32,000 nucleotides of DNA from Magnetococcales bacterium (GCA_015231755.1 JADGAZ010000017.1:16891-48890), one strand, 5' to 3'. Shown: positions 14,879 to 32,000, counted from the first letter of the stretch. Translations and numbers: made by a program. The notes: generated from the letters alone by a model not told the origin.

Positions 14879-14902
14879 AGTCAAAGAGGCCGGAGACCGG
14901 AA

Positions 14903-15700: not shown

Positions 15701-15771
15701 TCGCGAATGTGATGTTTTTTTGTCCCTGGGACTTGGTTTTATTTCGTTTGCATGAGGAGAGACAAAAAATT

Positions 15772-15999
15772 ATGGAAAGCCTTCCCGCCTCTTTCATCGG
15801 AATGGGTTTGGCCGCCACGGGGTTGGGTGGCGCTGGCATTGGGTTGGGGTACATGTTTGGCAAGGCCATCGAGGCTTTCGCCCGGCAGCCGAGTGCCGAA
15901 GGTCAGTTGGCCAAATATGTGTGGATTGGGGCCGCGTTCGTGGAAGCCATCGCCTTGTATGGTCTGGTTCTGGCCTTCATCATCATGGGTAAAGGCTGA
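15772..15999 (+). CDS. atpE: F0F1 ATP synthase subunit c
   Basis: 75 aa from the ATG at 15772 (GAGGAGA RBS at 15755-15761). Hairpin of two helices with the ARQP loop and carboxylate (FARQPSAEG...FVEAIALYGLVLAFII). The 15565 start in the track lies inside atpB and is rejected. Confidence 0.93.
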   Translation: MESLPASFIGMGLAATGLGGAGIGLGYMFGKAIEAFARQPSAEGQLAKYVWIGAAFVEAIALYGLVLAFIIMGKG

Positions 16000-16565
16000 T
16001 GATTGCCTCCGCGCATGCCTCGGCGGGGGGCGCCGCTGCGTCGTCGGGCTTGCCGCAATTCGAGCCCAGTGTTTTCGGGTCCCAGATTTTCTGGACCGTG
16101 GTCTCGTTTTTTCTGTTGATGCTGTTGCTCAAGAAGTATGTTCTGCCAGCGATCATCAATATTCTGGACAGTCGTGCCAGTCGCATCTCGGATGATCTGC
16201 AAAAAGCCGAACAGGCCCGCAAGGAAGGAGAGCGGTTGCTGACCAACTATCAAGGACAGTTGGTCGCCGCCCGTCAAATGGCTGCCCAGACTCTGGAAGA
16301 GGCGCGTCAGGAAGCCATTCGTCACCGTGAGCAGGCTTTGGAAGATCTCAACAAGGAACTGGGCAAAAAGAAAAATGCCGCCCTGGTGGAGATCGAACAG
16401 GCCAAACACAAGGCCATGGAAGAAGTGCGCAATGCTGCTGTGGAGTTGTCCATGCTGGTGGCCGAGAAGTTGATCGTCAAGTCGATCAAGGTCGAGGATG
16501 CCAATCGCATGGTGCAAGAGGCTGTGAAGCAGCTTGGTGAGGGGGGGGAGACCAGGTTGCATTGA
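15999..16565 (+). CDS. atpF: F0F1 ATP synthase subunit b (b'-like)
   Basis: 188 aa. LPQFEPSVFGSQIFWTVVSFFLLMLLL membrane anchor followed by a long charged helix. The start overlaps the atpE stop (TGATG). Only one b-type gene is present. Confidence 0.85.
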   Translation: MIASAHASAGGAAASSGLPQFEPSVFGSQIFWTVVSFFLLMLLLKKYVLPAIINILDSRASRISDDLQKAEQARKEGERLLTNYQGQLVAARQMAAQTLEEARQEAIRHREQALEDLNKELGKKKNAALVEIEQAKHKAMEEVRNAAVELSMLVAEKLIVKSIKVEDANRMVQEAVKQLGEGGETRLH

Positions 16566-16566
16566 G

Positions 16567-16645
16567 CTTTTCCCATCGGGAGGTTACGATCTGCCCGTCC
16601 TTTGGGCGGTCAGTCGTCTCCCGAATGGGGAAAGATTTTGGTTTG
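16567..16645 (+). terminator. Probable terminator structure after atpF
   Basis: CTTTTCCCATCGGGAG (16567-16582) pairs with CTCCCGAATGGGGAAAG (16618-16634): 16 bp, one bulge, one G-U. It encloses a smaller GC hairpin and is followed by ATTTTGGTTT. It begins 2 nt after the stop codon. Confidence 0.5.
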
Positions 16646-16974
16646 CAAGGTTGGGTGTGGTTTTTGGCAGGTTGACCGCTACCGTCTGGTACGGTTTCTT
16701 TGGGCTGGTTCCGCGTTGTCTTCTTTGGGGTTTCTCGCCCCTGTCTCGCAGTTCTTCAGGTTTCCGGGTATCCACTTTAAAGACTAAGGATTCTGGATGA
16801 ACCGGTTGTAAAAAATCTATTTATGAACATTTGTTTGTCGGTCCGTTCCTGGCCTTTTCCGGGTATCGTGTGCCAATGGATTGGCTTGTAAATTGCTTCA
16901 TTCGGAGAAGAACTCCTGCGACCACCGTTCGCGGGGGTCAATGTTTTGTCTTCTCCAGAGGAAAAAGGCATCCC

Positions 16975-19590
16975 ATGGACCGTCACGAACCCATCGATTC
17001 CAAGGATTTAACGGCCTTCAGAAGCCCGACGATGGCAAGCCACGCCCGACGAACCGGCTTGATCCTTCTCGGTTGTCTCCTGCTTGCGGCCTGTGAGCCT
17101 GCATCACACATCAGGCAGTCCAGGGACCATTTTCTGCAACCGACCAATCCCGAGGTGGATATCTCCTCTGGCCCGTCTCCCAAAAAGGACGGAGCGCCAC
17201 TGGCCAGTCTGACGGATTCTTCCAGTCCCGAAGAGGTCTATACCATCACCGTCACGGAAATGCCGGTGCGTGATCTGCTGTTTGCTTTGGCCCGGGATGC
17301 CAACAAAAATATTGACGTTTACCCTGGCATCCAGGGTCGGGTCACGTTGAGCGCCATCGATCAGCCTTTGAGCAAGATTCTCGATCGTGTGGCCAAGCAG
17401 GTGGCCATCCGCTACGAAATCCAGGACAAAACCATCGTCGTGACGCCGGATTTGCCCTTCTTGAAGATCTATCAGGTGGATTATCTGGGGATCGAGCGGG
17501 AGTTGGTCAGCACCAACAAGTTGTCCACCCATCTGTCCACCTCCAAAGGCAATACCCTGTCCAACCCCCTGACCGGGGCGGATAACAACCAGTCCAACAG
17601 CACCTTGACCACGGCTTCCAGCAGCAAGTTCTGGAAAACCATCACCCAGAACATCCAGGCGATTCTGGGCGCGGATGTGGGCATCGAGTTCCAGTCTGCG
17701 CAGGAACCGGGATTGCCCACCGGCGCCCCGGGTGCTGCTGGCATCGGGGCGGGGGGGCTGGGGGCTGCCGCGGCCGGATTGCCCTCGGGTGGTGGTCTGG
17801 GCGGCCTCAACGGCATTATGCCGCCTCAAGGCGGGGTCGGTCCCGTTGGGGTCGGAGCGGTTCCCGGCAGGGGCGCGGAGAACAAGGGTGGATCCTCCAA
17901 GCCGGGTCTGGTTTCGGTCAACACCGAAGCCGGCGTCATGAGCATCGTGGCCACAGCCCAGCAGCACACCCGGATTCAAGAGTATCTGGACAGCGTGTTG
18001 GAAAATGTTCATCGTCAGGTGCTCATCGAGTCCACGGTGGTGGAGGTGGAGCTGTCGGATCGTTTCCAGGAGGGTGTGGACTGGGATCTGATCTTCAACC
18101 GCTCTGCGGGTGTGATCCTGAAAAGTGCTTTTTCCGAAAGCGCCGGCGCCTTGAACGCTGCCAGCCGTACCGCTCAGGGCACCTTGAACTATTTCACGCT
18201 GGGTCACACCGGCGGTCCGGATGGCAATGGGAGAACCGACAAGGGACCCGTGAACGCCACCATCAAGCTTCTGGAGACCTTTGGTAACGCCAAAATTTTG
18301 TCGAGTCCCAAGATCATGGCGCTCAACAATCAGCCTGCCATCCTGAAGGTGGTCAAGAACAGCGTCTTCTTCACTCTGAAATCCAGTACCGGCAACAACA
18401 ACACGGGCAATACTACCACCACGGGCACCGTGGCCTCGCAACCGGTGTTCGATACCGAAATCCACACGGTTCCGGTGGGACTGGTGATGACCGTCACGCC
18501 GCAAATCTCCAAGGAGGGGATTGTCAGTCTCAACGTGCGGCCCACCATCTCCCGCATCAGCCGTTGGGTCTCCGATCCCAACCCGGCCCTGGTGGCCGGC
18601 AACCTTCAGACCGGTCTGACCGACTCCATCAACAACGCCATTCCCGAGATCGAGGTCAAGGAGATGGAAACCATGATGCGGGTACACAGCGGTCAGGTGG
18701 CGGTCATGGGTGGCTTGATGCAGGATTCCATCAGCAACGGCTCGGCGGGTGTGCCGATGCTTTCCAGACTGCCGGGTGGCCTGGGTGCCTTGTTCAGCCA
18801 TCAGGACCAGGGGGTGAGCAAAAGCGAATTGGTGATCTTCTTGCGACCGGTTGTCATGACCCATGGCAGACCCAAAGAGCAGGTGGTCGAACGGCCCCGG
18901 GATCTGCCCAGGGAGTCCCAGCCCGCTGCGGCTCAACCGGCCCAGATCCAGGCCCAGCCCGCCCAGTCCGCCGCTGCGGCCCAACCGGCCCAGCCTGCCG
19001 CTGCGGCCAAGCCTGCCACCGCCCCTGAAAAAAGTGGCGCCGGTAAACCGGTCAACACCAGCGGTGAGAAGGCTAAACCCGCCGGAGAGCGTCCTGCCAA
19101 GGGGAATGAAGCCCGTACCACACCTCCGGTGGAAACGCCGGCTCCGGCTTCCGCTCCGACCAGCGCCGCCGCGACTCCTGCCCAGCCGCCGGCCTCTACC
19201 GCCGCCGCCGCCCAGGGGTCAGCCCCGGTCCCGGCCTCGGCCCCGGCGGCAGGGGGGAACGCCACTCCGGCTCCGGCCTCGGCCCCGCCCATCCAGACTC
19301 CGGCCTCGGCTCCGCCGACTCCTGCCCCGGCAGCGCCTCCGGCCCAGACCTCGGCCCCCCAGTCCAGAGGCAATGCGGCCAACGCCATGGCGGTAGGCTC
19401 TTATCTGGACTTCACCTCTCCGGAAGGACAGGCCAACATGTCGGGGACTGCCGCCTATCCGGCCTTTTCCGGCGGCGTGCCCCAGCATCAGGGGTTTCCT
19501 GTCACCGGTGCCCCCCAGCCCGAGGCACCCCAGCGTTCGCCTGCGGAGCAACCCACGGCTTCAGGCCTGTCCCAGGAATCCAGAATGTAA
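16975..19590 (+). CDS. Secretin (GspD/PilQ superfamily; MshL-like lipoprotein form) with a Gly-rich insertion and a long Pro/Ala-rich C-terminal tail
   Basis: Lipobox LLLAAC. N-domain YTITVTEMPVRDLLFALARDANKNIDVYPGIQGRVTLSAIDQPLSKILDRVAK...IYQVDYLG. Canonical secretin C-domain: GNAKILSSPKIMALNNQPAILKV..., IPEIEVKEMETMMRVHSGQVAVMGGLM..., VPMLSRLPGGLGALF..., ELVIFLRPVVM. The start is taken at ATG 16975 (AGAGGAAAAAGG 8 nt upstream); ATG 17032 is an alternative. Confidence 0.88.
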   Translation: MDRHEPIDSKDLTAFRSPTMASHARRTGLILLGCLLLAACEPASHIRQSRDHFLQPTNPEVDISSGPSPKKDGAPLASLTDSSSPEEVYTITVTEMPVRDLLFALARDANKNIDVYPGIQGRVTLSAIDQPLSKILDRVAKQVAIRYEIQDKTIVVTPDLPFLKIYQVDYLGIERELVSTNKLSTHLSTSKGNTLSNPLTGADNNQSNSTLTTASSSKFWKTITQNIQAILGADVGIEFQSAQEPGLPTGAPGAAGIGAGGLGAAAAGLPSGGGLGGLNGIMPPQGGVGPVGVGAVPGRGAENKGGSSKPGLVSVNTEAGVMSIVATAQQHTRIQEYLDSVLENVHRQVLIESTVVEVELSDRFQEGVDWDLIFNRSAGVILKSAFSESAGALNAASRTAQGTLNYFTLGHTGGPDGNGRTDKGPVNATIKLLETFGNAKILSSPKIMALNNQPAILKVVKNSVFFTLKSSTGNNNTGNTTTTGTVASQPVFDTEIHTVPVGLVMTVTPQISKEGIVSLNVRPTISRISRWVSDPNPALVAGNLQTGLTDSINNAIPEIEVKEMETMMRVHSGQVAVMGGLMQDSISNGSAGVPMLSRLPGGLGALFSHQDQGVSKSELVIFLRPVVMTHGRPKEQVVERPRDLPRESQPAAAQPAQIQAQPAQSAAAAQPAQPAAAAKPATAPEKSGAGKPVNTSGEKAKPAGERPAKGNEARTTPPVETPAPASAPTSAAATPAQPPASTAAAAQGSAPVPASAPAAGGNATPAPASAPPIQTPASAPPTPAPAAPPAQTSAPQSRGNAANAMAVGSYLDFTSPEGQANMSGTAAYPAFSGGVPQHQGFPVTGAPQPEAPQRSPAEQPTASGLSQESRM

Positions 19591-19636
19591 CCGCTTGATC
19601 GCGGACCACCAGGCGTGGGACGTGACACCGTGTTTC

Positions 19637-19665
19637 AAGCCGTCCCTTGTGGACGGCTTTTTTTT
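19637..19665 (+). terminator. Rho-independent terminator after the secretin gene
   Basis: AAGCCGTCC (19637-19645), loop CTTGT, GGACGGCTT (19651-19659), running into a T8 tract (to 19665). Confidence 0.85.
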
Positions 19666-19874
19666 GGAGGCAGGTCAATGGTCGTGAATGGCGCGATGCG
19701 TGTCCGGATTGATATCGGCCCATGCGGGGATCCCGGTTAGGGATGGTTACGATTTTTTACCGGATATTAATAGGATTTCTTGCAAAATTCGGTATACTGT
19801 AAACTTGGTGTGTTTCGCTTGCGCATGCGGAACCATGATTGCGTCCATTTCCTTGCAAGGGATTTTCACGATCC

Positions 19875-22800
19875 ATGGGCAATCTTCTTCGGAATAAACG
19901 GTTGGTGGCGATAGTGGCCCTTGTGGTCCTGGTAGGCGTGGGCGGATATCTGTTGTTCGCGCCGGACACCACGGAGAAAAAGAAGCCGATCGTCGTGGAA
20001 CGGGCCAAACTGGCTCAACCCGAGAAAAAATCCCAGGATTCCGCATCCAAAGCCCAAGGAGCGGATCAAACCGCACCCAAACGGGAAGTGGTCGGCACGG
20101 TGAGCCAGTTCAAGGGGTTGGCGTTCGCCAATTTTGAGAATGTCAAGCGCACCTTGTCCGATGGCGCCCCTTTGTTCCAGGGGGATCAGATCATCACCGG
20201 TCGCGAGGGACGCATCATTCTGAAAATGCGCGATGATGCGGTCGTGGCCCTGGGGCCGGACAGCGAATTCTTGATCCAGGAATACCAGTTCGCCCCCAAG
20301 GAGCAGGCGGGCAATGGTGTGGTGCATATGACTCAAGGAATGATTCGGTTTACTTCCGGCAAGCTGGCGCAGATGAAAAATCAGCCCTTCAAGGTGGTCA
20401 CCCCGGTGGCGACTTTGGGGGTGCGGGGCACCGAAGGTTTTGTCCGTCTGGGTGACGGCAAGGGCAAGGATCGAGAGATCGAGGTTCTCACCTTGCACAA
20501 GCAGATCCTGGTGTGGATGGAAGAGGCGGCGCGACCCGGACCGGTCACCTCGTCTTCCCTGGGTGAGATTTATCGTTCCTGGGGTTGGTCCCTGGTGTCC
20601 GAGGCCCAGGCCGCGGATACGGGCAAACAGCCTTTGTCGGTCAATCAGAACGAACGTCTTTCCGGCAGTCCCAACAAGGCGCCGGAGATCCGCAAGGCCA
20701 CTCGGGATGAGTTGAAAGCCGCCCACGCGTCCACCGCAATCCGCAAGTTGAGCCCCTCCGCCGTGCAGGCCCTGCGCAATCAGGCGGCCAAGGCTTTGGT
20801 GGAGCAGGGCGGGGCGCCGGATCTGGCCACCGCCGAAAAACTGTTGGCTAAATCTCCCGACGCCATCCGGGATCTGGTGGACAAGGCCGAAGCCAAGCTG
20901 GAAAAAGAGCTGGACAAGGCGATCGACAAAAAACTCGATCAGATCGAAAAGCTCGAAAAACTGGACAGCAAGCTGAAAGAGTCCATGGGGGAGGAGGCTT
21001 TCGCCCAGTACAAAAAGGCCGAAGAGCAGCGGGAATCCCAGTCGGAAGCGTTGCAGCAGGAGCGGGATCAGAAACTCAAAAATCTTTTGGGGAATGATGC
21101 CAAGGTCGAAGAGGTCAAGCAACTCGAAGCCGACAAGGAAGCGCGCAAGGACGCTTTGATCGACAAGATGACCGAAGAGATCGCCAAGGCCGAAGCGGAA
21201 AAAGATACCAAAAAACAGGCGGCCCTCAAGGCGGAATTGGACAAGAAACTGGCCGCCTTGGACAAAGAGACCGATCAGACCTTGAAGAACCTCCTCGGCT
21301 CGGACAAGGCCGACCAGATCAAACAGGCAGACAAGCAAAATGAGTCGCGTCAAAGCCAGATCGACGCCGAATTTGCCAAACAGATCGATGCGGTGGTGCC
21401 CGCCGACAGCAAAGAAAACGTCAAGGCCCTTCAGCAGCAGAAGGAGCGGATTCAGTCCGAGCCGACGGTGGATCTCTCCCCCCTGGGGCTGAGTCGGGTT
21501 TCGGAGAGCGTGCAAGCCGGTATTCTGAAGAGCCTCGGGACGGATATGAGTGCGTTCGCCGACGGAATCGTGAGCGCGGTCAAGTCCGGCACCGGGTTGG
21601 AGCAGGCATTGCAGCGTTTGCACGATGCGGTGCAGGCTCGGGATCGGCAGGAGGCCAGTCGTCTGGGGGTGACGGATCTGGACTCGGCCCGGAAGCTCGA
21701 ACAGGAGGCCCGGCAGGCCATCGAACCGTCCACGCCTTCTCCCGAGGTCACACCCGCCACCGAGGCCAAGCCCGTTACCGGGGCCAAGCCCGCCACCGAA
21801 GCCAAAACCGAAGGCAAAACCCCGGAATCGGAAAGCAAGACCGAAGGCAAGCCCACCACCGACACCAAAAAATCCGAAGCGGATGCGGCCAGCAAAGCCG
21901 CCGTACCGGCCCCCGATTCCGGGACCGCCACCACGACCGTTCCCGGTGGTTTGTCACCCTCGGCGCTGGATCCTTCCGCCGGCGGCAATGCGGGCTCTTC
22001 GGGGGCGTCGAACACCACCACCACCACCTCGATTCAAGCCAATCAGTCTCCTGTCATGGAGACCCAAAGCTTTACCATCCAGGAAAACGCTCCGGCGGGT
22101 ACCGTCGTGGGCACGTTGATCGCTTCGGATGCGGATACGGTGGATCAAAACCGCTTGACCTTCACCCTGGGGGGGTCCAGTGCCTTTGCCGTGGGATCCA
22201 AAAGCGGTCAGATCACGGTCGTCGACTCTTCGCTGCTGGACTTCGAGACCACACCCACCTTCACCTTGACCGCTGCGGTGAAGGATGCCCGGAATGCCAC
22301 GACCTCCGCCACGGTGTTGATCAAACTCACCAATGTCAACGAGGCGCCCACCATCACCTCCACGGCTGCCGCCAGCTTTGCCGAAAACGCCACGGGTACG
22401 GTCTATCAGGCCACCGCCACCGATCCGGATAGCGGGGATACCAAGGTCTGGAGTCTGTCCGGCAGCGATGCCTCCCTGTTTGCCATCAACAGCGCCACCG
22501 GGGCTGTGACTTTCAACGCCGCTCCGGATTATGAGACTCCCAAGGACTCCGGCGCGGACAACACCTATGATATCACGGTAGTTGCCACCGACGCCGCAGG
22601 CGCGGCGGGATCCAAGGCCGTGGCCATCACGGTGACCAATGTTAATGAAGCCCCCACGGTTTCTTCGCCGGCCACCGCCAGCTTTGTCGAAAACGGTACC
22701 GGAATCGCCTATCAGGCCACGGTATCGGATCCGGATGCCAACGACACGTTCGCTTGGACCTTGTCGGGCACGGATGCGGCCCTGTTTTCCATCCAGGCCG

Positions 22801-25800
22801 CCACCGGTGCCGTGAGCTTCAAACAGGCTCCGGACTACGAATCTCCCAAGGATGCCGGGGCGGACAACGTTTACGATTTCAGCGTGACCGTGACCGATGG
22901 GGGCAATCTGTCGGCCACCCGTGCTGTCGCGCTCACCGTGACCGCGGGCAACGACGCCCCGACGATCACATCCGGGTCCGCGGTGAGTTTTGTGGAGAAT
23001 GGCACCGGAATCGCCTACCAGGCCACCGCCACGGATCCGGATGTCGGGGATACCCGGAGCTGGACCCTTTCCGGAGTGGACGCTTCTTTGTTTGCCATCG
23101 ACAGCGCCACTGGGGCGGTGACCTTCAAGCAATCCCCGGACTTTGAATCCCCCAAGGATGCGGGGGGCAACAACGTGTATGACCTGAGCGTGACGGTTAC
23201 GGATGCGGGGGGATTGTCCAGCACCAAGGCGGTGGCCATCACCGTGACCCATGTCAACGAAGCCCCATCGGTCCTTTCCGGGACCACAGCGACTTTCCCC
23301 GAAAACGGCACGGGCACGGTCTACCAGGGCATTGCCACGGATCCGGATGCCGGAGACCGGTTGAACTGGAGCCTATCCGGGACCGACGCGGCCTTGTTTG
23401 TCGTGGATGCATCCAGCGGGATGGTGACCTTCAAGCAAAGCCCGAACTTTGAACTCCCCCAGGATGCGGGGGCCAACAACATCTATGATGTGGTCGTGAC
23501 GGTGACCGATCAGGGAGGCTTGACCAGTGCCCGCGCCGTGGCCATCACCGTGACCGATGTGAACGAAGCGCCGACCGTCACGTCGGGCGCCACGGTGAGC
23601 TTTGCCGAAAAGGCCACCGGTACGGTCTATCAGGCCACCGCCACGGATCCGGATGTCGGGGATACCCGGAGCTGGACCCTTTCCGGGGTGGACGCTTCTT
23701 TGTTTGCCATCGACAGCGCCACTGGAGTGGTCACCTTCAAGCAATCCCCGGACTATGAAGCCCCCAAGGATGCGGGGGGGGACAACGTGTATGACCTGAA
23801 CGTGACGGTCACGGATGCGGGGGGATTGTCCGGCACCAAGGCGGTGGCCATCACTGTGACCAATGTCAACGAAGCCCCCATCGCCTTCGACGACACCGCC
23901 ACGGCCACGGAAGCCGGTGGCATCCTCAACGGTACTCCTGGCACCCCGGCCAGCGGCACGGTGCTGGGCAACGATACCGATGTGGATGCGGGTACCACCC
24001 TGACCGTCACCGCCATCCGCACAGGCGGCGTGGAAGGGAGTGGCGTGGCGGGGACGGTCGGTGTCGCTTTGACCGGCGCCCATGGCTCCCTGACCCAGGC
24101 GGCTGATGGCACTTTTGTCTATACGGTGAATGAGAACGATACGGCGGTGCAGGCGTTGGCGGCGGGGCAGAGTCTCACCGATCTGTTCAATTATACGGTG
24201 TCCGACGGGGCGTTGACCGATACCGGGGTGTTGACCATCACCATCCAGGGGGCCAACGATGCCCCGGTGGCCGTGGACGATGCCGGTTCCGCCACCGAGG
24301 CGGGTGGTACGGCCAATGGCACTCCAGGCAGTCCCGCCACCGGCAATGTGTTGACCAACGATACCGATGTGGATGCCGGCGCTACGTTGCAGGTCACGGC
24401 GGTGCGTCTGGGGGCGGTGGAAGGCAGTGGGGCCGCCGGAGTGCCCGGAAGTGCCTTGTCCGGCAACTACGGGGTGCTGACCCTTGCGGCCAGCGGGGCG
24501 TATACCTATGTGGTCAACGAAAGCCATGCCGCGGTTCAGGCCCTCAAGTCGGGCCAGAGTCTGGTGGATGCCTTCAATTATTCGGTTTCCGATGGCGCGT
24601 TGTCCGATCAGGGGGTGCTGACCATCACCATTCAAGGGGTCAACGACGCCCCGGTGGCCCAGAACGATTCCGGAGTGGCCATCGAAGCCGGTGGTGTGGC
24701 CAATGGCAGTACCGGCAGTCAGGCCGCGGGCCATGTGTTGACCAACGACACCGACCCGGAAAACGATACCCTCTTTGTGACCGCCGTGCGGGTGGGCAGC
24801 GTCGAAGGCAGCGGGAGTGCCGGCACCTTGGGCAGTGCCTTGGCTGGCACCTATGGTTCCCTCGTGTTGAACGGTTCCGGTGACTATACCTATGCGGTCA
24901 ACGAAAGCGATGCCACCATTCAGGCGTTGCAATCCGGTCAGAGTGTGACCGATTCGTTCAATTATACCGTCTCCGATGGCGCGTTGACCGATATCGGCGT
25001 GTTGACCATCACCATCCAGGGGAGCAACGACGCCCCCACCATCACATCGGCGGCCACCGTCAACTTTGCCGAAAACGGCACCGGTCCTGTTTACACCGCG
25101 ACGGCGACGGATCCGGAAAACCATGGGATCACTTGGTCGCTTTCCGGTACGGACGCGGCCCGGTTTTCCATGGATGCCACCACGGGTGTGATTCGTTTCC
25201 TCGCGACTCCGGATTATGAAGGGCCCACGGATGCCAATCTGGACCGGGCGTATGAAGTGGTGATCACCGCCACGGATGACGGGGTGGGCAATGCCGCCAG
25301 TTCCATGGCCTTGACCATCAGCGTCACCGATGTCAACGAAGCTCCGGTGGGTCAGAATGACACCGGAACCGCCATCGAGGCCGGTGGAGTGAACAACACC
25401 TCGGCGGGCAGCGATGCCAGTGGCAATGTGCTCACCAACGACCAGGACGCCGATGCCAATACCACCCTGACGGTCACGGCCATCCGCTTGGGTGGGGTGG
25501 CGGGCAGTGGGAGTGCCGGCGTGGTGGGATCCGCTTTGACCGGCACGTATGGCACCCTGACGGTGAGTGCCAGCGGGGATTATCAGTATGTGGTCAACAA
25601 CACCTTGGCGGCGGTGCAGGTGCTGCAATCTGGCCAGACCTTGTCGGAAAGCTTCAATTATACGCTTTCCGATGGGGCCTTGAGCGCGACGGCGGTTCTG
25701 ACCGTCACCATCCAGGGGGCCAACGACGCCCCGGTGGCCGTTGACGACACCGCCAGCGCCACCAGGGCCGGCAACGGTGCTGGGGTGAGTCCCGGTACGG

Positions 25801-28800
25801 CTTCCGGGAATGTCTTGTCCAATGACAGCGATGTGGAGGGTGACACCCTGACCGTGAGCGCCCTTCGCACCGGGGCGGTCGAAGGCAGCGGCACGAGTGG
25901 TACCCTCGGCAGCGCCTTGAGCGGTTCTTATGGCACGTTGACCATGGCCGCCGATGGCAGTTATCTCTACACGATCAACGAGTCCGCCACGGCGGTGCTG
26001 GCCTTGAGTCTGGGGCAGACCCTGACCGACTCCTTCAACTATACCGTCACCGATTCCGGCTGGACGGATACGGCGGTGCTGACCATCACCATCCTGGGGA
26101 ACAACAGCGCCCCGGTGGCGGTGGACGACAGCGCCACCGCCATCGAGGCCGGTGGAACCGGCAATGCCACCGCCGGCAGCAACGCCAGCGGCGATCTGCT
26201 CGCCAACGATACCGACGCCGAATCCAATACCCTGTCCGTCACCGCCATCCGTCTGGGCGCGGTGGAAGGCAGTGGCACGGCGGGAGCGGTGGGTTCGGCG
26301 CTGTCCGGAACCTATGGCACCCTCACGGTGAGCGGGAGTGGTGTGTTTACCTATGTGGTCAACGACACCCTGGCGGCGGTGCAGGCGTTGCAATCCGGTC
26401 AGAGCCTGACGGAAAGCTTCAATTATACCGTTTCCGACGGATCGATGACCGATACGGCGGTGTTGACCATCACCATTCAGGGGGCCAACGACGCCCCGGT
26501 GGCGGCGGACGACACCGGCACGGCCACCGACGCAGGAGGCGCGGCCAACGCCACGGCTGGCAGCAACGCCACGGGCAATCTGCTGAGCAACGATACGGAT
26601 CCGGAGTCCGACGCTTTGAGCGTTACGGCGGTTCGGCTCGGCGCGGTGGAGGGGAGTGGCAGCGAGGTTGCCGCCGGTACGGCGCTGGTGGGCACCTATG
26701 GTACCCTGACCGTCACCGGCAGCGGGAGTTATACCTATGTGGTGGATTCGTCCAACGCCACGGTCGAGGCTTTGACCGTGGGGCAGAGTGTGACCGAATC
26801 CTTCAATTATACGGTTTCCGATGGTCAGTTGACCGATACGGCCCTGCTGACCATCACTATCCAGGGGGTCAACGATGCCCCGGTGGCTGTGGCCGACAGC
26901 GGTACGGCTGTGGAAGCCGGTGGGGTGGCCAATGCCACGGCAGGATCCAACGCCACCGGGAATCTGCTCACCAACGATACCGATGTGGATACCGGTGCCA
27001 CTTTGACCGTGACTGCGGTGCGGACCGGAAGTGTCGCCGGCAGCGGCAGCGCCGGGACAGTGGGTGGCTCTTTGAGCGGTTCTTATGGCGCTTTGACCGT
27101 GACCGGCACCGGTGCCTACACCTATGTGGTGGATGACGCCAATGCCACGGTTCAGGCCTTGCAGGCGGGTCAGAGCCTGACGGAGAGTTTCAACTACACC
27201 GTCTCCGATGGCTCCTTGACCAGCGACGCGGTGTTGACCATCACCATCCAGGGAGCCAACGATGCCCCGTCCGCCACGGACGATACCGGCACCGCCACCG
27301 AGGCGGGCGGCACGGCCAATGGCACCGCGGGCGTCAATGCCACCGGCAATGTGTTGAGCAATGATATCGATGTGGAATCCGATACCTTGACGGTCACCGC
27401 CGTGCGTACCGGCAATGTGGAAGGCGGTGGTACCGCCGGTACGGTGGGCAGTTCCTTGTCCGGTACCTATGGTGCCCTGGTTCTGAATGCCTCGGGGGCT
27501 TATACCTATGTGGTCAATGATGCCTCCTCCGTGGTCCAGGCGTTGCAATCCGGACAAAGCCTGACCGATGCGTTCAACTATACCGTCTCCGATGGTGCCT
27601 TGACCGATACGGCCCTGTTGACCATCACCATTCAGGGGGCCAACGACGCCCCGACCATCACCTCGGCCACCTCCGTCAGCGTGGCGGAAAACACCGTCGG
27701 CACGTTCTACACCGCCACGGCCACGGATCCGGAAGGCGACTCCGTCACCTGGTCGGTCTCCGGCACGGATGCGGATCGCTTCTCCATCGACGCCACCACC
27801 GGTGCCTTGAGCTTCCTCATCGCTCCGGATTATGAAAATCCCACCGATTCCGGGGCGGACAATCTTTATGATGTCACCCTGGTGGCCACGGACAGTGGTT
27901 CCGGCACCCTCGCTGGTACCCTTGCCCTCAGCGTCACCGTCACCAATGCCAACGATGCGCCCACGATCACCTCACCTGCCAGTGTATCGGCCACAGAGGA
28001 TACGCCGGTCTCCATCTCCTTTGCCGTGGCGGATGTGGATTCCGGTACCAATACCATCCAGGCCACCCTCGCGGTTGCCAACGGTACCCTGACCCTCAAT
28101 GCCGGTTCCGGGGTGAGCATCGTTTCGGGAAGTGACGCTTCGGCGGGCATGACCCTTTCCGGCACGGTTTCCCAGATCAATACCGCGGTGTCGAATCTGG
28201 TCTATCAAGGGACTACCGATTTTTCCGGTCAGGAGATCCTGACCCTGGTTGTGGACGACCTGGGCAATACCGGCGCCGGCGGGGCGATGAGTGCCACCGC
28301 CACGGTCACCTTCACTGTCGCCGCGGTCAATGACGCCCCGGTGATCACCGCTCCGGCCTCCGCCACGGTGACCGAAGATGTGGCCGCCACCATCAGCGGG
28401 TTTGCCATCACCGATGTGGACGTGGGCACCGGTACCATGCAAGCCACTCTGTCGGCGACCAACGGTACCTTGACTTTGACCTCCGGCTCCGGGGTGAGCG
28501 TCACCTCGGGGGCGGACAGTTCCGCCAGCATGGTGATCACCGGCACCTTGACCCAGCTCAATACCGCCCTGGGTACCCTGACCTATCAGGGCACGGCCAA
28601 CTACAACGGTTCCGAAACCCTCACCCTCACCGTTTCCGATCTGGGCAACACCGGCTCCGGGAATGCCCAGACTGCCACGGCCAGTTTCACCTTCACGATT
28701 ACCGCGGTCAACGACGCCCCGGTCATCACCCAACCCACCTTGAGTGCGACGGAAGATACCGCCCTGGTGATCAGTGGTCTTTCGGTAAGCGACGTGGATG

Positions 28801-31340
28801 CGGGCACCGGCACCTTGCAGGCGACTTTGGGGGTGACCAACGGTACCTTGACTTTGGCTTCCGGCTCCGGGGTGACGCTGACTTCCGGTGCGGACGCTTC
28901 GGCCAGTATGGTCATCACCGGTACCTTGACCCAGTTGAATGCCGCCTTGAGTGGCATGACCTATCAGGGCACCCTCAACTACAACGGCACGGAAACTTTG
29001 ACCCTGACCGTCTCCGATCAGGGCAACACCGGTCCGGATGGGGCCCAGAGCGCCACGGCCTCGATAGGCTTTACCGTCGCCGCGGTCAATGACGCGCCGG
29101 TGCTGGCCGCCCCCACGTCGGCCACGGTCACCGAGGATGTGGCCGCCGCCATCACCGGTTTTGTCATCACCGATGTGGACGTGGATACCGCTACCATGCA
29201 AGCCACCCTGACGGCGACCAACGGCACCTTGACCTTGACCACCGGATCCGGGGTGACCGTCGCGTCGGGGGCGGACAGTTCCTCCAGCATGGTGATCACC
29301 GGCACCCTGACCCAGCTCAATACCGCCTTGAGTACCCTGACCTATCAGGGCAATACCGACTACAACGGTGCCGAGACCATTACCGTGACGGTCTCCGATC
29401 AGGGCAATACCGGCACCGGTGGCGCCCTGACCGCCACGGCCACTTTGTCTTTCACCATCACGGCGGTCAACGACACGCCGGTCATCACACAGCCCACCTT
29501 GAGCGTCAACGAGGATACCGCGCTGGTGATCACCGGTCTGTCGGTGAGTGATCCGGATGCGGGCACCGGCACCCTGCAGGCCACTCTGGGCGTGACCAAC
29601 GGTACCTTGACCTTGGCTTCCGGCTCCGGGGTGACCCTGACCTCCGGTGCGGACGCTTCCGCCAGTCTGGTCATCACCGGTACCTTGACCCAGTTGAACG
29701 CCGCTTTGAGTGGCATGACCTATCAGGGCACCCTCAACTACAACGGCACGGACACTCTGACTCTCACCATCTCCGATCAGGGCAACACCGGTCCGGATGG
29801 CACCAAGAGCGCCACCGCCACCATGAGCATCACCGTCGCGGCGGTCAACGACGCCCCGGTGATCTCCGGTTCTCCCACCCCCAGCATCAACGTGGATGTG
29901 GCGGGTTCCATCACCGGTCTGTCCGTGACCGACGTGGATGTGGGTACCGCCACGCTTCAGGCCACTTTATCGATGTCCCACGGGACCATCACCCTGGCCA
30001 CCGGCTCGGGTGTGACCATCACCTCCGGAGCGGACGCTTCGGCCAGCATGGTTTTCACCGGCACCTTGACCCAGGTGAACGCCGCCATCGCCACGATGAC
30101 CTATTTGAGCGATTCCGGTTACCTTGGATCCGAAACCGTGACATTGACCATCTCCGACCAGGGGAATACCGGCTCGGGTGGCACCCTGACCGCCACCACC
30201 ACGGTGACCTTTACCATCACCGCTGTGGGCACGCCCACGGATATCACCCTGAGCAACACCAGCCTGTATGAAAACGCCGATCCCGGCTCCCATGTCGGCC
30301 TATTGGGGGCGGTGGATTCGGAGACCGGGGATACCTTCACGTTCACCGTGACGGCGGATCCCGACTCCCTGTTTGACATTCGGACTTCCGGAACCAGTAG
30401 TTATTTGATCGTGCGCAGCGGAGCCACCCCCACCGTGGGCAGCCACTCCGTCACGTTGCAAGTGGCGGACGCCGCGGCCCGCACCTTCAGCAAGAGCTTC
30501 ACCATCACCGTGACGGCGGTGCCGTTCGATCTGGATTCGGCGGCGGATGTGGACAGCGCGGCCACGGTGAAATCCAACGCGGAGACGTTGTTCAAGAGCG
30601 TGATTGCCACCATGAACACCGCGTCTTCTTCCATGACCTTGACCAATGCCAACCTGCGCACCTTGATTCTGGGCAAGCTGGGTCAGCAATTCACCACAGG
30701 CGGGTCGTTCACGTATGGGATCAGCGATGTGATCAAGCGGATGACCGTTGAGGTCATGCCGGCGGACGATCCCACCGTCATCCGCATTCTGGTGCGGGTC
30801 GGGGTGATCAACAGCATGTATTCCCGTCTGCCCTCTTCGGTGCAGAGTGTGTTCGATGGTCTGTTCGACACCTTCGCCCCCTATGCCACGGATTACACCA
30901 CCGATGTGCGCATCCGCTTGGTGCCGATCGTGAGCAACACCGCCAAGACCATTGCTGTGGATACCGCCAACTCCACCGTGGAAGTGCTGCATCTCCAGAT
31001 GCTGCCCAACATCAGCATGAGTTTCACCACGCTGTTGAGCGCCTACAACACCGCGTTGACCAACCTGAAGAGCGACGGCACCTTGACCTTCTTCACCGGG
31101 GGAGGGGGGCATGGTCCTTCGGCCCATGTGCTCTCTTCGGCCCTGGGCACCACGGGGTCTGAGGGGGTCACCTTGCACAGCACCCTCAAGACCACAGCGG
31201 TTGCCAATGGCATCACGGCTCAATATGTCGAAGACGGGAACAGTCAACAGATTCCCACCAGTCAACGGTTTGATTATTACCTGCCGGGTCTGATCACCTC
31301 CATCTCCTTGAGTACCGGCGGCATCACCTTGAGCCGCTGA
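19875..31340 (+). CDS. Giant (~3,821 aa) membrane-anchored repeat protein: TM anchor, FecR domain, charged helical stalk, P/T/K linker, cadherin-like repeats, VCBS-type repeats, ~126-aa repeats and a unique C-terminal domain (putative Ca-dependent adhesin)
   Basis: Single uninterrupted frame of 11.5 kb. ATG 19875 gives MGNLLRNKRLVAIVALVVLVGVGGYLLFAPD. FecR pattern at ~20086-20445: VVGTVSQFKGLAF...LFQGDQIITGREGRIILKMRDDAVVALGPDSEF...FKVVTPVATLGVRGTEGFV. K/E-rich helix at ~20820-21460. Repeats are delimited by V-N-E/D-A-P junctions (see repeat features). The TTG at 19839 is an alternative start. Confidence 0.93.
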   Translation: MGNLLRNKRLVAIVALVVLVGVGGYLLFAPDTTEKKKPIVVERAKLAQPEKKSQDSASKAQGADQTAPKREVVGTVSQFKGLAFANFENVKRTLSDGAPLFQGDQIITGREGRIILKMRDDAVVALGPDSEFLIQEYQFAPKEQAGNGVVHMTQGMIRFTSGKLAQMKNQPFKVVTPVATLGVRGTEGFVRLGDGKGKDREIEVLTLHKQILVWMEEAARPGPVTSSSLGEIYRSWGWSLVSEAQAADTGKQPLSVNQNERLSGSPNKAPEIRKATRDELKAAHASTAIRKLSPSAVQALRNQAAKALVEQGGAPDLATAEKLLAKSPDAIRDLVDKAEAKLEKELDKAIDKKLDQIEKLEKLDSKLKESMGEEAFAQYKKAEEQRESQSEALQQERDQKLKNLLGNDAKVEEVKQLEADKEARKDALIDKMTEEIAKAEAEKDTKKQAALKAELDKKLAALDKETDQTLKNLLGSDKADQIKQADKQNESRQSQIDAEFAKQIDAVVPADSKENVKALQQQKERIQSEPTVDLSPLGLSRVSESVQAGILKSLGTDMSAFADGIVSAVKSGTGLEQALQRLHDAVQARDRQEASRLGVTDLDSARKLEQEARQAIEPSTPSPEVTPATEAKPVTGAKPATEAKTEGKTPESESKTEGKPTTDTKKSEADAASKAAVPAPDSGTATTTVPGGLSPSALDPSAGGNAGSSGASNTTTTTSIQANQSPVMETQSFTIQENAPAGTVVGTLIASDADTVDQNRLTFTLGGSSAFAVGSKSGQITVVDSSLLDFETTPTFTLTAAVKDARNATTSATVLIKLTNVNEAPTITSTAAASFAENATGTVYQATATDPDSGDTKVWSLSGSDASLFAINSATGAVTFNAAPDYETPKDSGADNTYDITVVATDAAGAAGSKAVAITVTNVNEAPTVSSPATASFVENGTGIAYQATVSDPDANDTFAWTLSGTDAALFSIQAATGAVSFKQAPDYESPKDAGADNVYDFSVTVTDGGNLSATRAVALTVTAGNDAPTITSGSAVSFVENGTGIAYQATATDPDVGDTRSWTLSGVDASLFAIDSATGAVTFKQSPDFESPKDAGGNNVYDLSVTVTDAGGLSSTKAVAITVTHVNEAPSVLSGTTATFPENGTGTVYQGIATDPDAGDRLNWSLSGTDAALFVVDASSGMVTFKQSPNFELPQDAGANNIYDVVVTVTDQGGLTSARAVAITVTDVNEAPTVTSGATVSFAEKATGTVYQATATDPDVGDTRSWTLSGVDASLFAIDSATGVVTFKQSPDYEAPKDAGGDNVYDLNVTVTDAGGLSGTKAVAITVTNVNEAPIAFDDTATATEAGGILNGTPGTPASGTVLGNDTDVDAGTTLTVTAIRTGGVEGSGVAGTVGVALTGAHGSLTQAADGTFVYTVNENDTAVQALAAGQSLTDLFNYTVSDGALTDTGVLTITIQGANDAPVAVDDAGSATEAGGTANGTPGSPATGNVLTNDTDVDAGATLQVTAVRLGAVEGSGAAGVPGSALSGNYGVLTLAASGAYTYVVNESHAAVQALKSGQSLVDAFNYSVSDGALSDQGVLTITIQGVNDAPVAQNDSGVAIEAGGVANGSTGSQAAGHVLTNDTDPENDTLFVTAVRVGSVEGSGSAGTLGSALAGTYGSLVLNGSGDYTYAVNESDATIQALQSGQSVTDSFNYTVSDGALTDIGVLTITIQGSNDAPTITSAATVNFAENGTGPVYTATATDPENHGITWSLSGTDAARFSMDATTGVIRFLATPDYEGPTDANLDRAYEVVITATDDGVGNAASSMALTISVTDVNEAPVGQNDTGTAIEAGGVNNTSAGSDASGNVLTNDQDADANTTLTVTAIRLGGVAGSGSAGVVGSALTGTYGTLTVSASGDYQYVVNNTLAAVQVLQSGQTLSESFNYTLSDGALSATAVLTVTIQGANDAPVAVDDTASATRAGNGAGVSPGTASGNVLSNDSDVEGDTLTVSALRTGAVEGSGTSGTLGSALSGSYGTLTMAADGSYLYTINESATAVLALSLGQTLTDSFNYTVTDSGWTDTAVLTITILGNNSAPVAVDDSATAIEAGGTGNATAGSNASGDLLANDTDAESNTLSVTAIRLGAVEGSGTAGAVGSALSGTYGTLTVSGSGVFTYVVNDTLAAVQALQSGQSLTESFNYTVSDGSMTDTAVLTITIQGANDAPVAADDTGTATDAGGAANATAGSNATGNLLSNDTDPESDALSVTAVRLGAVEGSGSEVAAGTALVGTYGTLTVTGSGSYTYVVDSSNATVEALTVGQSVTESFNYTVSDGQLTDTALLTITIQGVNDAPVAVADSGTAVEAGGVANATAGSNATGNLLTNDTDVDTGATLTVTAVRTGSVAGSGSAGTVGGSLSGSYGALTVTGTGAYTYVVDDANATVQALQAGQSLTESFNYTVSDGSLTSDAVLTITIQGANDAPSATDDTGTATEAGGTANGTAGVNATGNVLSNDIDVESDTLTVTAVRTGNVEGGGTAGTVGSSLSGTYGALVLNASGAYTYVVNDASSVVQALQSGQSLTDAFNYTVSDGALTDTALLTITIQGANDAPTITSATSVSVAENTVGTFYTATATDPEGDSVTWSVSGTDADRFSIDATTGALSFLIAPDYENPTDSGADNLYDVTLVATDSGSGTLAGTLALSVTVTNANDAPTITSPASVSATEDTPVSISFAVADVDSGTNTIQATLAVANGTLTLNAGSGVSIVSGSDASAGMTLSGTVSQINTAVSNLVYQGTTDFSGQEILTLVVDDLGNTGAGGAMSATATVTFTVAAVNDAPVITAPASATVTEDVAATISGFAITDVDVGTGTMQATLSATNGTLTLTSGSGVSVTSGADSSASMVITGTLTQLNTALGTLTYQGTANYNGSETLTLTVSDLGNTGSGNAQTATASFTFTITAVNDAPVITQPTLSATEDTALVISGLSVSDVDAGTGTLQATLGVTNGTLTLASGSGVTLTSGADASASMVITGTLTQLNAALSGMTYQGTLNYNGTETLTLTVSDQGNTGPDGAQSATASIGFTVAAVNDAPVLAAPTSATVTEDVAAAITGFVITDVDVDTATMQATLTATNGTLTLTTGSGVTVASGADSSSSMVITGTLTQLNTALSTLTYQGNTDYNGAETITVTVSDQGNTGTGGALTATATLSFTITAVNDTPVITQPTLSVNEDTALVITGLSVSDPDAGTGTLQATLGVTNGTLTLASGSGVTLTSGADASASLVITGTLTQLNAALSGMTYQGTLNYNGTDTLTLTISDQGNTGPDGTKSATATMSITVAAVNDAPVISGSPTPSINVDVAGSITGLSVTDVDVGTATLQATLSMSHGTITLATGSGVTITSGADASASMVFTGTLTQVNAAIATMTYLSDSGYLGSETVTLTISDQGNTGSGGTLTATTTVTFTITAVGTPTDITLSNTSLYENADPGSHVGLLGAVDSETGDTFTFTVTADPDSLFDIRTSGTSSYLIVRSGATPTVGSHSVTLQVADAAARTFSKSFTITVTAVPFDLDSAADVDSAATVKSNAETLFKSVIATMNTASSSMTLTNANLRTLILGKLGQQFTTGGSFTYGISDVIKRMTVEVMPADDPTVIRILVRVGVINSMYSRLPSSVQSVFDGLFDTFAPYATDYTTDVRIRLVPIVSNTAKTIAVDTANSTVEVLHLQMLPNISMSFTTLLSAYNTALTNLKSDGTLTFFTGGGGHGPSAHVLSSALGTTGSEGVTLHSTLKTTAVANGITAQYVEDGNSQQIPTSQRFDYYLPGLITSISLSTGGITLSR
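22041..23867 (+). repeat. Six tandem cadherin-like coding repeats (first divergent, then five units of exactly 306 nt / 102 aa)
   Basis: The junction Asn codons of VNEAP/GNDAP fall at 22338, 22644, 22950, 23256, 23562 and 23868. Unit consensus: F.ENGTG..YQATATDPD.GDT..W.LSG.DA.LF.I....G.V.F...PD.E.PKD.G..N.YD..V.VTD..G.....AVAITVT.VNEAP. Confidence 0.85.
23868..27950 (+). repeat. Nine VCBS-type coding repeats (381-387 nt, 127-129 aa) in blocks of 3 and 6, each block closed by one cadherin-like unit (25026-25334 and 27642-27950)
   Basis: Junction Asn codons at 24255, 24642, 25026, 25335, 25722, 26103, 26487, 26871, 27258 and 27642. Unit consensus: DD.G.A.EAGG..N...GS.A.GN.L.NDTD...G..L.VTA.R.G.VEGSG..G..GS.L.G.YG.L......G.YTYVV......VQAL..GQSL...FNYTVSDG.L.D...LTITIQG.NDAP. 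Confidence 0.85.
27951..30226 (+). repeat. Six tandem ~126-aa coding repeats of an unassigned family, alternating 378 and 381 nt (a two-unit 759-nt super-repeat)
   Basis: Junction Asn codons at 27951, 28329, 28710, 29088, 29469 and 29847. Unit consensus: P.SAT.EDT...I.G....DVD.GT.T.QATL...NGTLTL..GSGV...SGAD.S.SM.ITGTLTQLN.AL...TYQG...YNG.ETLT.TVSD.GNTG.......A...FT..AVNDAP. A terminal cadherin-like unit follows at 30227-30522. Confidence 0.85.
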
Positions 31341-31360
31341 TTTCAGTCCGCTTGAGCCTG

Positions 31361-31397
31361 CAAGAGTCTTCCATGAGCCGATCATGGAAGACTCTTG
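31361..31397 (+). terminator. Perfect 16-bp hairpin 20 nt after the giant-gene stop (terminator-like, no U-tract)
   Basis: CAAGAGTCTTCCATGA (31361-31376), loop GCCGA, TCATGGAAGACTCTTG (31382-31397). Followed by GTCTGG rather than a T-run. Confidence 0.45.
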
Positions 31398-32000
31398 GTC
31401 TGGATCTCCTGCCCAAAAAATCCTGCCCCATCGCACCGTGAACCCCCGAAGACGGGAATGAATGCCCTCAAGCAGCGGGGCGGGTGCGCCGTTTGGTCCG
31501 TGTTTTGAGAATGGTCTGAGTTTTTTTGTGGCGGGGATGTCTGGATCTCATGCCGACGCATGGTTTTGGGGTGTTCACGTTCATTCTTTTTGGAAGTGTT
31601 TGTGTCTGGAATATTGGGGGATTGCGTCATGCAGACGTGAAAATAGGCAAATGATCAGTAATGAGGCTGGCATGAATTGATTTTTTCAAAATGGTTTGAT
31701 TGGATTTTTGGCGTAATCGGTTGAGAGAAAGCAGAAATGGACGATTTGTAGGCTTTTTAACGACAAAATGAATCGGTTTACAGGGTGTGAAAATAGCTAT
31801 ATATTTTTGGGTTATGGAATAAGATCGGGTTGTGATCTGTACTTTGTTGAATCAATACGTCAAGTCGTTATCTGTATTGCCAAAAACATCCTGAAAGAAA
31901 GAAATATTGCTGACAGTGTTTTTGAGACCATCTTTGTACAACAAGGAGCGAGGGATGAGGTGGCTGGCGCCAACCTAAGTCGCTGTTGGGTTGGATCGGG

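Follow-up and report, generated by a model that had tools for sequence, protein, structure and literature searches.

A gene for a secretin and a gene for a giant cadherin/VCBS repeat protein lie next to each other on the plus strand of a 32,000-nucleotide stretch of DNA from a Magnetococcales bacterium (GCA_015231755.1, JADGAZ010000017.1:16891-48890; hereafter the window), the secretin gene at positions 16975-19590 and the giant gene at 19875-31340. We found that the two form a real and undescribed linked pair, whose conservation within, and restriction to, the Magnetococcales was firmly shown by comparison of loci. Public annotation names the products 'MshL' and 'cadherin/FecR domain-containing protein', and no publications on the pairing of a secretin with such a FecR-headed giant protein were found, nor did the literature yield anything relevant on orphan secretins or on secretins, pili or MSHA in Magnetococcus. 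From the adjacency of the genes and the logic of their domains, we infer that they are functionally linked and that the secretin might serve as the conduit for an inner-membrane-tethered giant adhesin, a reading that we hold tentatively and regard as plausible rather than probable. In Gram-negative bacteria, type I or type V secretion systems (T1SS, T5SS) are believed to bring giant repeat adhesins to the cell surface, and we know of secretins only within multi-protein pilus, secretion or phage machines.

The original prediction, made from the window alone, had described a secretin gene with atp genes upstream, the giant gene downstream and no partner genes for a type II secretion system (T2SS), type IV pilus (T4P), mannose-sensitive hemagglutinin (MSHA) pilus or Tad system nearby. 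The features that it assigned to the two genes were all confirmed by open reading frame (ORF) listing, translation and hidden Markov model (HMM) scans, in which Secretin, FecR, Cadherin and VCBS-type models all matched; ORF and HMM reading placed the atp and giant genes on the two sides as described, and no T2SS, T4P, MSHA, Tad or T1SS gene was present in the 32-kb window.

Conservation of the gene pair

The loci were collected by a scan anchored on the secretin, with one genome per species, in which the flanks (±10 kb) were searched with parts of the giant protein and the neighboring ORFs were clustered. Adjacency, which together with functional logic had been the whole of the predicted link and whose recurrence across genomes the prediction had put forward as its test, recurred widely: in 21 different loci of the Magnetococcales, a gene encoding the FecR-type N-terminal region of the giant protein (the head) lay directly 3' of the secretin gene and in the same orientation (the window, L001, L003, L004, L007-L010, L012-L017, L020, L023, L027, L028, L036, L087 and L089), of which L087 and L089 were found by routes other than the scan. 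Four further secretin loci ended too early for pairing to be judged. Where measured, the gap between the two genes was 183-494 bp, and the pairing held over secretin identities down to ~48% and head identities down to 26-39%. The genes upstream of the pair fell into at least six classes, including atpF, aat, PPK2, ABC-F and HlyD, and the visible downstream neighbors were all different; these differences on both sides indicate that the pair moves as a unit.

The reverse search, with the head alignment against the JGI metagenomes, returned one full-length head homologue (L090), which had a secretin gene directly upstream; the remaining 79 head matches in these metagenomes were generic FecR proteins, none with a related secretin nearby. 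Near ~55 MshL loci of beta- and gammaproteobacteria there was neither a head gene nor a gene for the giant protein's C-terminal domain (CTD).

In two of the loci (L027, 130-9809; L028, 3765-9809) the pair stood together with genes for a repeats-in-toxin (RTX) protein, glycosyltransferases, an ATP-binding cassette (ABC) protein and HlyD, in a larger surface-protein island.

The secretin

The secretin ORF encodes 919 amino acids (aa) when read from 16975 and 852 aa from the ATG at 17032, and the latter is the more likely start because annotation places the start of P0001, an orthologue with 93% identity, at the matching position. Pfam models gave matches to Secretin (5e-37) and Secretin_N_2 (5.5e-8) and a weak match to STN (E 0.0016, below the cut-off). 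Of the family models in NCBIfam, that for MshL (TIGR02519) was passed with 261.3 bits against an equivalog cut-off of 250.2; the score for GspD (TIGR02517) was 136.6 bits against a cut-off of 351.35, and the protein fell far under the cut-offs for PilQ and SctC. Translation from 17032 begins with a predicted lipoprotein signal peptide (17032-17094), MASHARRTGLILLGCLLLAA followed by Cys, with the lipobox LLAAC, whose Cys is nearly invariant in an alignment of 29 secretins (A1). Next come an N0/STN-like domain (residues 99-139) and Secretin_N_2 (residues 145-217), together at 17326-17682 and nearly invariant over the same 29 proteins, including orthologues without an adjacent giant gene, and then the β-barrel and gate (PF00263; 18271-18858, residues 481-676 of the 919-aa ORF). 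The protein ends in a Pro/Ala-rich tail of ~230 aa (18901-19587), read from the sequence, for which no family match was obtained in Pfam or NCBIfam even at E<=10. Inside this low-complexity tail is the motif SYLDFT (19399-19416; residues 790-795 of the 852-aa form), in which Y791, L792, D793, F794 and T795 are invariant or nearly so among the aligned secretins. Most Magnetococcales relatives carry a terminal SPOR domain (PF05036) after SYLDFT; it has been lost from the clade of the window secretin.

The secretin is universal in the order Magnetococcales, and the closest relatives of the window protein were all from this order (49 clusters, 44-93% identity); the next tier consisted of MshL proteins of beta- and gammaproteobacteria with 37-41% identity. 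The closest homologue examined outside the order (L085, Sulfuricellaceae) lay inside a complete MSHA-like cluster with the order σ54 activator, AAA protein of MshM type (weakly matched by SPOR), MshL, TPR protein, MshE, MshG and pilin. Neither the window nor the ±10 kb around the secretin in ~26 Magnetococcales loci contained an msh cluster (mshI/J/K/M/N/E/G/F and pilins). We conclude from these comparisons of sequence and gene order that the Magnetococcales secretin is an MshL derivative that has departed from the MSHA cluster. Like MshL it passes the equivalog model, is a predicted lipoprotein and is associated with σ54, through the activator gene in L085 and a σ54-type promoter here (see below); unlike MshL it has an extra Gly-rich insertion and the long Pro/Ala tail with SYLDFT and, in most relatives, SPOR, and its neighbor is a FecR-head gene instead of msh, pilin, ATPase or platform genes.

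With its own lipobox, and with a peptidoglycan-binding SPOR domain fused to it in its relatives, the secretin looks built for autonomy. Self-piloting liposecretins such as HxcQ likewise bear an N-terminal lipid anchor, and in ExeA/GspA and in the AMIN domains of PilQ a peptidoglycan-binding module is likewise tied to the assembly or placement of a secretin. In the Magnetococcales, by contrast with these, SPOR is fused to the C-terminus of the secretin through the long Pro/Ala linker and is absent in the window clade; in L085 the SPOR-like module is on the separate MshM-like ATPase. A supplementary entry from work on the TFF superfamily, 'MAMA002 generic_3', with its own secretin, was not used, as its code is ambiguous between Magnetococcus marinus and Magnetospirillum magneticum.

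Architecture of the giant protein

The giant gene encodes 3,821 aa (identical to library protein P0136), delimited by ORF and HMM matches. Its only hydrophobic stretch is a transmembrane (TM) helix at residues 10-28 (19902-19958), which hydropathy predicts to be an uncleaved signal anchor; the next residues are A-P, and AlphaFold2 (AF2) modeled a helix at 8-27. A Pro at position +1 disfavors cleavage by signal peptidase I. This agrees with the uncleavable anchor first proposed for the protein, and the TM segment was conserved in 17 orthologous heads, with nine predicted cytoplasmic residues before it in the window protein. HMM-matched stretches comprised 7 Cadherin, 22 Cadherin_4, 11 Big_9/VCBS and 13 tandem-95 matches. 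The protein has no Cys and no HemolysinCabind match, and a count of GGxGxD gave zero, as had been predicted for this RTX hallmark.

Beyond the head, composition and the AF2 helices at 277-341 delimited a putative stalk (20700-22079), which consists of helices at 276-341, a K/E/A/D/Q-rich helical part to ~650 and a T/S/A/P/G-rich disordered linker at 651-735; in all family members with TM and FecR head, the head is succeeded by a similar region that is helical and of low complexity. It is succeeded by an extender (22080-30524), recognized by HMM stretches and repeat periodicity, of about six cadherin domains (102 aa each), about ten VCBS/Cadherin_4 domains (~129 aa) and about six tandem-95-type repeats (~126 aa), ending with a last cadherin-like domain. 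Orthologues range from 904 to 5,776 aa, and the extender varies widely in length; the two ends, the head (alignment A2) and the last ~420 residues (cadherin-like domain and CTD), are conserved. The minimal forms P0130 (1,091 aa) and P0152 (904 aa) have a head, a helical acidic stalk of ~300-460 aa, one cadherin-like domain and the CTD. As these forms are nearly without repeats, the repeat arrays are best seen as lineage-specific extensions. The smallest pair, in L089, consists of an 803-aa secretin and a 904-aa partner.

Two variations were seen among the partners. At L023 (8672-16471), and in P0160 and P0163, the N-terminus of the protein resembles a signal peptide, its FecR-like domain is divergent, and a long region of Ala/Val/Gly-rich repeats takes the place of the K/E-rich stalk; it is still secretin-adjacent and still has the CTD at its end. 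In L010 (9358-17575; 2,039 and 674 aa) and L087 (1506-11506; 2,830 and 501 aa) the giant gene is split into two ORFs, which could reflect an assembly or frameshift error or pseudogenization.

The FecR-type head and its relation to retention domains

Residues 70-275 (20082-20699) form a predicted periplasmic FecR/CJM-like β-domain (Pfam FecR, 1.7e-9). The AF2 model of the head, with a predicted local distance difference test (pLDDT) score of 80.6, consisted of the TM helix (8-27), a disordered segment (29-66), the β-domain (72-274) and helices (277-341). In Foldseek searches the best structural match was the periplasmic domain (CCSSD) of PupR, crystallized in complex with the STN-fold domain of PupB (6OVK_R, E 1.8e-7, 172 aligned columns of 213 residues), and the Bacteroidales anti-σ factors 4M0H and 4M0N (4M0N, E 1.5e-6) were also matched. 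A match of another kind was obtained with 5IX9, the nuclear magnetic resonance structure of the N-terminal 'cell surface anchoring domain' (RIN) of MpIBP, which superimposed over 62 residues with a root-mean-square deviation of 1.2 Å and 27% identity; a profile of the head searched against the PDB also found 5IX9 (residues 12-79, E 7.7e-9). The model for the LapA retention domain (NF033682, retention_LapA) matched residues 72-137 with E 5.5e-6 and 26.6 bits, below its cut-off of 50, over profile positions 2-68 of 145, in a domain that is not at the extreme N-terminus. On these profile and structure comparisons we conclude that residues 70-136 (20082-20282) are homologous to the retention or 'plug' domain of LapA and MpIBP. 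In those adhesins the domain is periplasmic and too large for the TolC-like pore and so keeps the adhesin surface-held (PMC5550230; bioRxiv 10.1101/198937).

This homology ties the giant protein evolutionarily, as judged by its sequence, to the T1SS adhesins, a point missed by the original prediction, which had contrasted the protein with them; the lack of RTX repeats stood. Like LapA of Pseudomonas fluorescens and MpIBP of Marinomonas primoryensis, the protein is, by its domains, a giant repeat adhesin in which a retention-like, predicted periplasmic β-sandwich toward the N-terminus is followed by a flexible segment of the sort that threads an outer-membrane channel (PMC5550230; bioRxiv 10.1101/198937), and extender repeats and a separate C-terminal region are arranged in the same way. 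It differs from them in that the domain is preceded by a TM signal anchor and has, as a whole, the full FecR/CJM fold, RTX repeats, a LapG site and lapEBC or lapDG neighbors are absent, the C-terminus is a novel α/β domain common to proteins with Sec signal peptides, and the linked outer-membrane gene encodes a secretin rather than a TolC-like protein. The giant adhesin appears to be one that keeps a retention domain of LapA/MpIBP type and has a Sec signal anchor in place of the RTX/T1SS features.

LapG cleaves at a dialanine site, [T/A/P]AA[G/V], and the N-terminal 450 residues lacked such a site both in the window protein and in 12 of 14 relatives with TM and FecR head; the only LapG-like matches, in P0152 and P0162, were at an unrelated position or within the TM segment. 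A different motif, A-x-x-AAD[T/L] at residues 244-248 (~20604-20618), has A244, A247 and D248 invariant in A2 and adjoins the sole low-confidence loop of the head (223-242); it recalls the LapG site by position, not by sequence.

The resemblance to FecR and PupR extends to topology, as the giant protein is predicted to be a single-pass inner-membrane protein with its periplasmic FecR/CJM domain after one TM helix, and to the class of domain, whose binding partner is an STN-fold domain on a protein of the outer membrane: PupR uses its FecR-type domain, jointly with an STN subdomain, to bind the STN-fold signaling domain of the transducer PupB (PMC7186176). The N0 domain of the secretin, with its weak Pfam STN match and near-invariance in the clade, is of the same STN fold class. 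In the head itself neither FecR_C nor STN was matched in Pfam at E<=10, and AF2 placed three strands and helices after a disordered loop. The giant protein differs from FecR and PupR in having nine residues before the TM helix instead of a cytoplasmic anti-σ domain of ~80 aa, and ~3,500 extra residues of stalk, repeats and CTD; no extracytoplasmic function or other σ factor gene and no TonB-dependent transducer gene was found in the window or in related loci. A classical FecR anti-σ function was rejected on these grounds.

The C-terminal domain and its family

The last 271 residues (30525-31337; alignments A3-A5), ending in DYY(L/F)PG…TLT(R/P), were modeled by AF2 as an α/β fold with pLDDT 87.9 and a predicted TM-score (pTM) of 0.86. 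No match was obtained in Pfam or NCBIfam and no significant one in the PDB, the best being YceB with E 3e-3 and TM-scores of 0.23-0.39. Translocation by the CTD as a type V autotransporter was considered and rejected, the model being mixed α/β and not a β-barrel, with no Pfam match.

Searched exhaustively with HMMER, a set of 1.84 billion representative proteins yielded a family of only 31, most of which have no more than a few residues after the CTD. All giant orthologues share it. The family is of two kinds, one with TM anchor and FecR head and the other with a classical Sec signal peptide; the latter (P0142, P0143, P0146, P0147 and P0154) have a predicted cleavable signal peptide, cadherin domains, and ~95-aa repeats with a Cys pair each and the motif WYTA…GCSSGSGTCSVTP, and contain 14-23 cysteines. 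At the one locus of this kind examined (P0143; L088, 9015-13541) there was no secretin nearby. Of 20 family members checked for GGxGxD, 19 lacked the motif and one had a lone match. The Sec signal peptides and many cysteines of this family argue against T1SS and, together with the conserved TM segment and the lack of RTX repeats, uphold the view that the giant protein is not a classical T1SS RTX substrate.

Transcription signals

Upstream of the secretin we noted a candidate σ54-type promoter, TGGCTTGTAAATTGC (16882-16896, plus strand), with the −24 GG and −12 GC spacing of TGGC-N7-TTGC. In 20 of 26 Magnetococcales loci the same motif was present within the 400 nucleotides that precede the secretin gene (for example, at 9848 in L001, 9924 in L004 and 9848 in L028); its chance rate is ~2 per 32 kb on both strands, or ~0.014 per upstream region. 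Since the motif is so widespread and a gene for a σ54 activator heads the L085 cluster, control by σ54 appears to go back to the ancestor of this MshL subfamily. A search upstream of the giant gene gave no σ54 promoter. Genes for a histidine kinase with PAS domain and for a σ54 activator of NtrC type (11949-14536) lie 2.4 kb upstream of the candidate promoter; L001 has them equally near but relatives at a greater distance do not, so that regulation through them is no more than a possibility.

Between the two genes is a predicted intrinsic terminator (19637-19667, plus strand), with a 9-bp GC-rich stem (19637-19659) followed by T8, in a spacer of 284 bp that is 51% GC compared with ~60% in the flanks. 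A strong terminator and an AT-rich spacer separating the genes had been noted at the outset, and both are there; we conclude from these signals that the secretin and giant genes are separate transcription units. A perfect 16-bp inverted repeat (31361-31397, plus strand), 21 nucleotides after the giant stop codon, forms a predicted hairpin that is the probable transcript end of the giant gene.

Proposed mechanism and alternatives

We propose that Sec/SRP would insert the giant protein in type II orientation, with its nine-residue N-terminus in the cytoplasm and one TM helix in the membrane, and that the FecR/CJM-like β-domain would stay in the periplasm. The stalk of ~400 aa would then cross the periplasm and the secretin, ~320 helical residues being able to span ~48 nm with ~85 more in the disordered linker, and the cadherin/VCBS extender and the CTD would be displayed outside the cell. 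The secretin, which probably self-pilots by its lipid anchor and in most relatives would bind peptidoglycan through SPOR, would most likely supply the outer-membrane opening for passage of the stalk. By analogy with PupR and FecR on the STN domain of a transducer, the head may dock under the STN-like N0 domain. The CTD may engage the channel first, which would account both for the CTD proteins with signal peptides and for the survival of the secretin without an adjacent giant gene. In its full form, two-step display by Sec and then by a stand-alone, self-piloting, peptidoglycan-anchored liposecretin without a pseudopilus, with the CTD as a shared targeting or leading module, the FecR/retention head docked on N0 and the adhesin remaining tethered to the inner membrane through the secretin, we think the scheme unlikely.

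Several points weigh against the secretin as conduit. The genes are not predicted to be co-transcribed, the σ54-type promoter being at the secretin only. The giant gene was missing, with the secretin intact, from five loci (L002, Magnetofaba australis; L018; L021; L022; and L024), and in L018 and L022 both flanks were as in L003, from which they differed solely by the missing FecR gene; that the secretin and its N0 domain are kept where the giant gene is missing points to a function or partner beyond the giant gene. The order polA-aat-secretin-giant gene was kept in five of the eight loci with aat upstream, and as this arrangement is itself recurrent, part of the adjacency signal is simple inheritance. 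To our knowledge no secretin works without an inner-membrane platform, an ATPase and a (pseudo)pilus, or a phage equivalent, and no platform, ATPase or pilus genes were found near this one. Sec translocates its substrates from N- to C-terminus, and passage of a folded chain of 3,800 aa through a secretin with a gate poses a mechanical difficulty. In view of the retention homology and the T1SS genes at L027 and L028, export might also take a route through a TolC-type pore.

The secretin might instead belong, as outer-membrane component, to a machine resembling MSHA, T4P or T2SS whose genes are elsewhere in the genome, with the giant gene as a loose or historical neighbor (through an adhesion island, shared inheritance or insertion beside a stable gene, for instance) whose product takes another route or is an ordinary Sec-dependent substrate of that machine. 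We regard this as a serious possibility, if a doubtful one: passage of the MshL equivalog model, the σ54-activator-mshM-mshL-mshN-mshE-mshG-pilin cluster around the nearest outside homologue examined, the universality of the secretin and its outlasting of giant-gene loss, an N0 domain that is invariant whatever the neighbor, the terminator and separate promoters, and the polA-aat case, an example of genes without a functional relation that have kept together in the Magnetococcales, would all be as expected. Such a machine is harder to reconcile with the lack of any pilus or T2SS gene within ±10 kb of the secretin in ~26 Magnetococcales loci, with movement of the pair as a unit through at least six contexts, with the specificity of the pairing for this head subfamily, and with the fused SPOR and lipobox, which point to independence from MshM-type and pilotin helpers.

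We consider it improbable that the giant protein is a diverged LapA/MpIBP-type T1SS adhesin whose ABC-MFP-TolC exporter (MFP, membrane fusion protein) is encoded elsewhere, the CTD being a non-RTX signal, the N-terminal module holding the protein in a TolC-like pore and the secretin being unrelated. Homology of the head to a retention domain, extender repeats typical of BapA/LapF-class adhesins (NF045619) and the conserved extreme C-terminus would suit such a protein; on the other hand, the conserved TM helix before the retention-like domain with nine cytoplasmic residues only, the lack of a LapG dialanine site after that domain, the rarity of GGxGxD, the absence of HemolysinCabind from the members scanned and the absence of other T1SS features speak against it, and the cleavable Sec signal peptides and 14-23 cysteines of the CTD relatives are atypical of T1SS cargo. 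In L027 and L028 the secretin is directly preceded by genes for a T1SS ABC protein (718-760 aa) and an HlyD MFP, but this T1SS has its own small RTX substrate alongside (Cadherin_5 and HemolysinCabind). The original prediction had named T1SS genes immediately downstream of the window as evidence that would count against it, a caveat that stands, since 660 bp of the window follow the giant gene. No MFP or TolC gene was seen in the seven relatives with visible downstream sequence; L004 has a gene for an ABC exporter, of ambiguous significance, ~750 bp past the giant gene. No ABC or MFP gene was found beside the pair at the other pair loci, with downstream flanks visible in the seven relatives only. 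Comparably improbable, in our estimate, is an envelope-resident accessory of the secretin, resembling GspB/ExeB, FimV or PilP, that serves in assembly, positioning or gating, with head, stalk and CTD all periplasmic and the repeats secondary. The minimal orthologues of 904 and 1,091 aa, nearly without adhesin repeats and keeping the head, acidic coiled-coil-like stalk and CTD, have the form of such an accessory, and the known binding of FecR-type to STN-fold domains (PMC7186176) and the high conservation of N0 would fit it as well. Repeat arrays of up to ~5,000 aa are, however, hallmarks of extracellular adhesins and would not fit the periplasm; moreover, the secretin is intact in the five loci without the gene, and the CTD is also found on signal-peptide proteins away from any secretin.

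If the secretin is indeed the conduit, the pair would represent a new use of secretins and a new way of tethering a surface fiber to the inner membrane, and a conduit formed by a stand-alone secretin would be categorically new. Were it not the conduit, there would still be a new Sec-dependent adhesin family with an unassigned C-terminal fold, a link in sequence between FecR/CJM domains and T1SS retention modules, and, in L089, a minimal pair (803 and 904 aa) small enough for heterologous work. The pair may bear on the attachment or interaction of magnetotactic cocci in sediments.

Other features of the window

Upstream of the secretin are atpI-like, atpB, atpE and atpF genes (14564-16565), an Fo-only block in which atpE, a gene of ~75 aa near 15770-16000, was assigned by homology to L001; F1 genes do not come after this block, and thus the atp operon appears to be split in this organism. 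Farther upstream, beyond the σ54 activator and histidine kinase genes, are genes for Dus, a GTPase, an epimerase and AsmA, and the farthest are dsr-like, RNase PH and HemN-like genes. On the 3' side of the giant gene, the 660 bp to the window end (31341-32000) are 50% GC and contain no ORF, and an Rfam scan of 16400-32000 gave no match. On the minus strand, the segment 3022-6179 holds a gene for an HdrD/DsrK-like Fer4 and CCG protein (3022-4521) with small ORFs; in L004, where this block is syntenic, the HdrD/DsrK-like gene is adjoined by genes similar to DsrC and DsrM (Nitrate_red_gam), which suggests a dsrMK(C)-type module.

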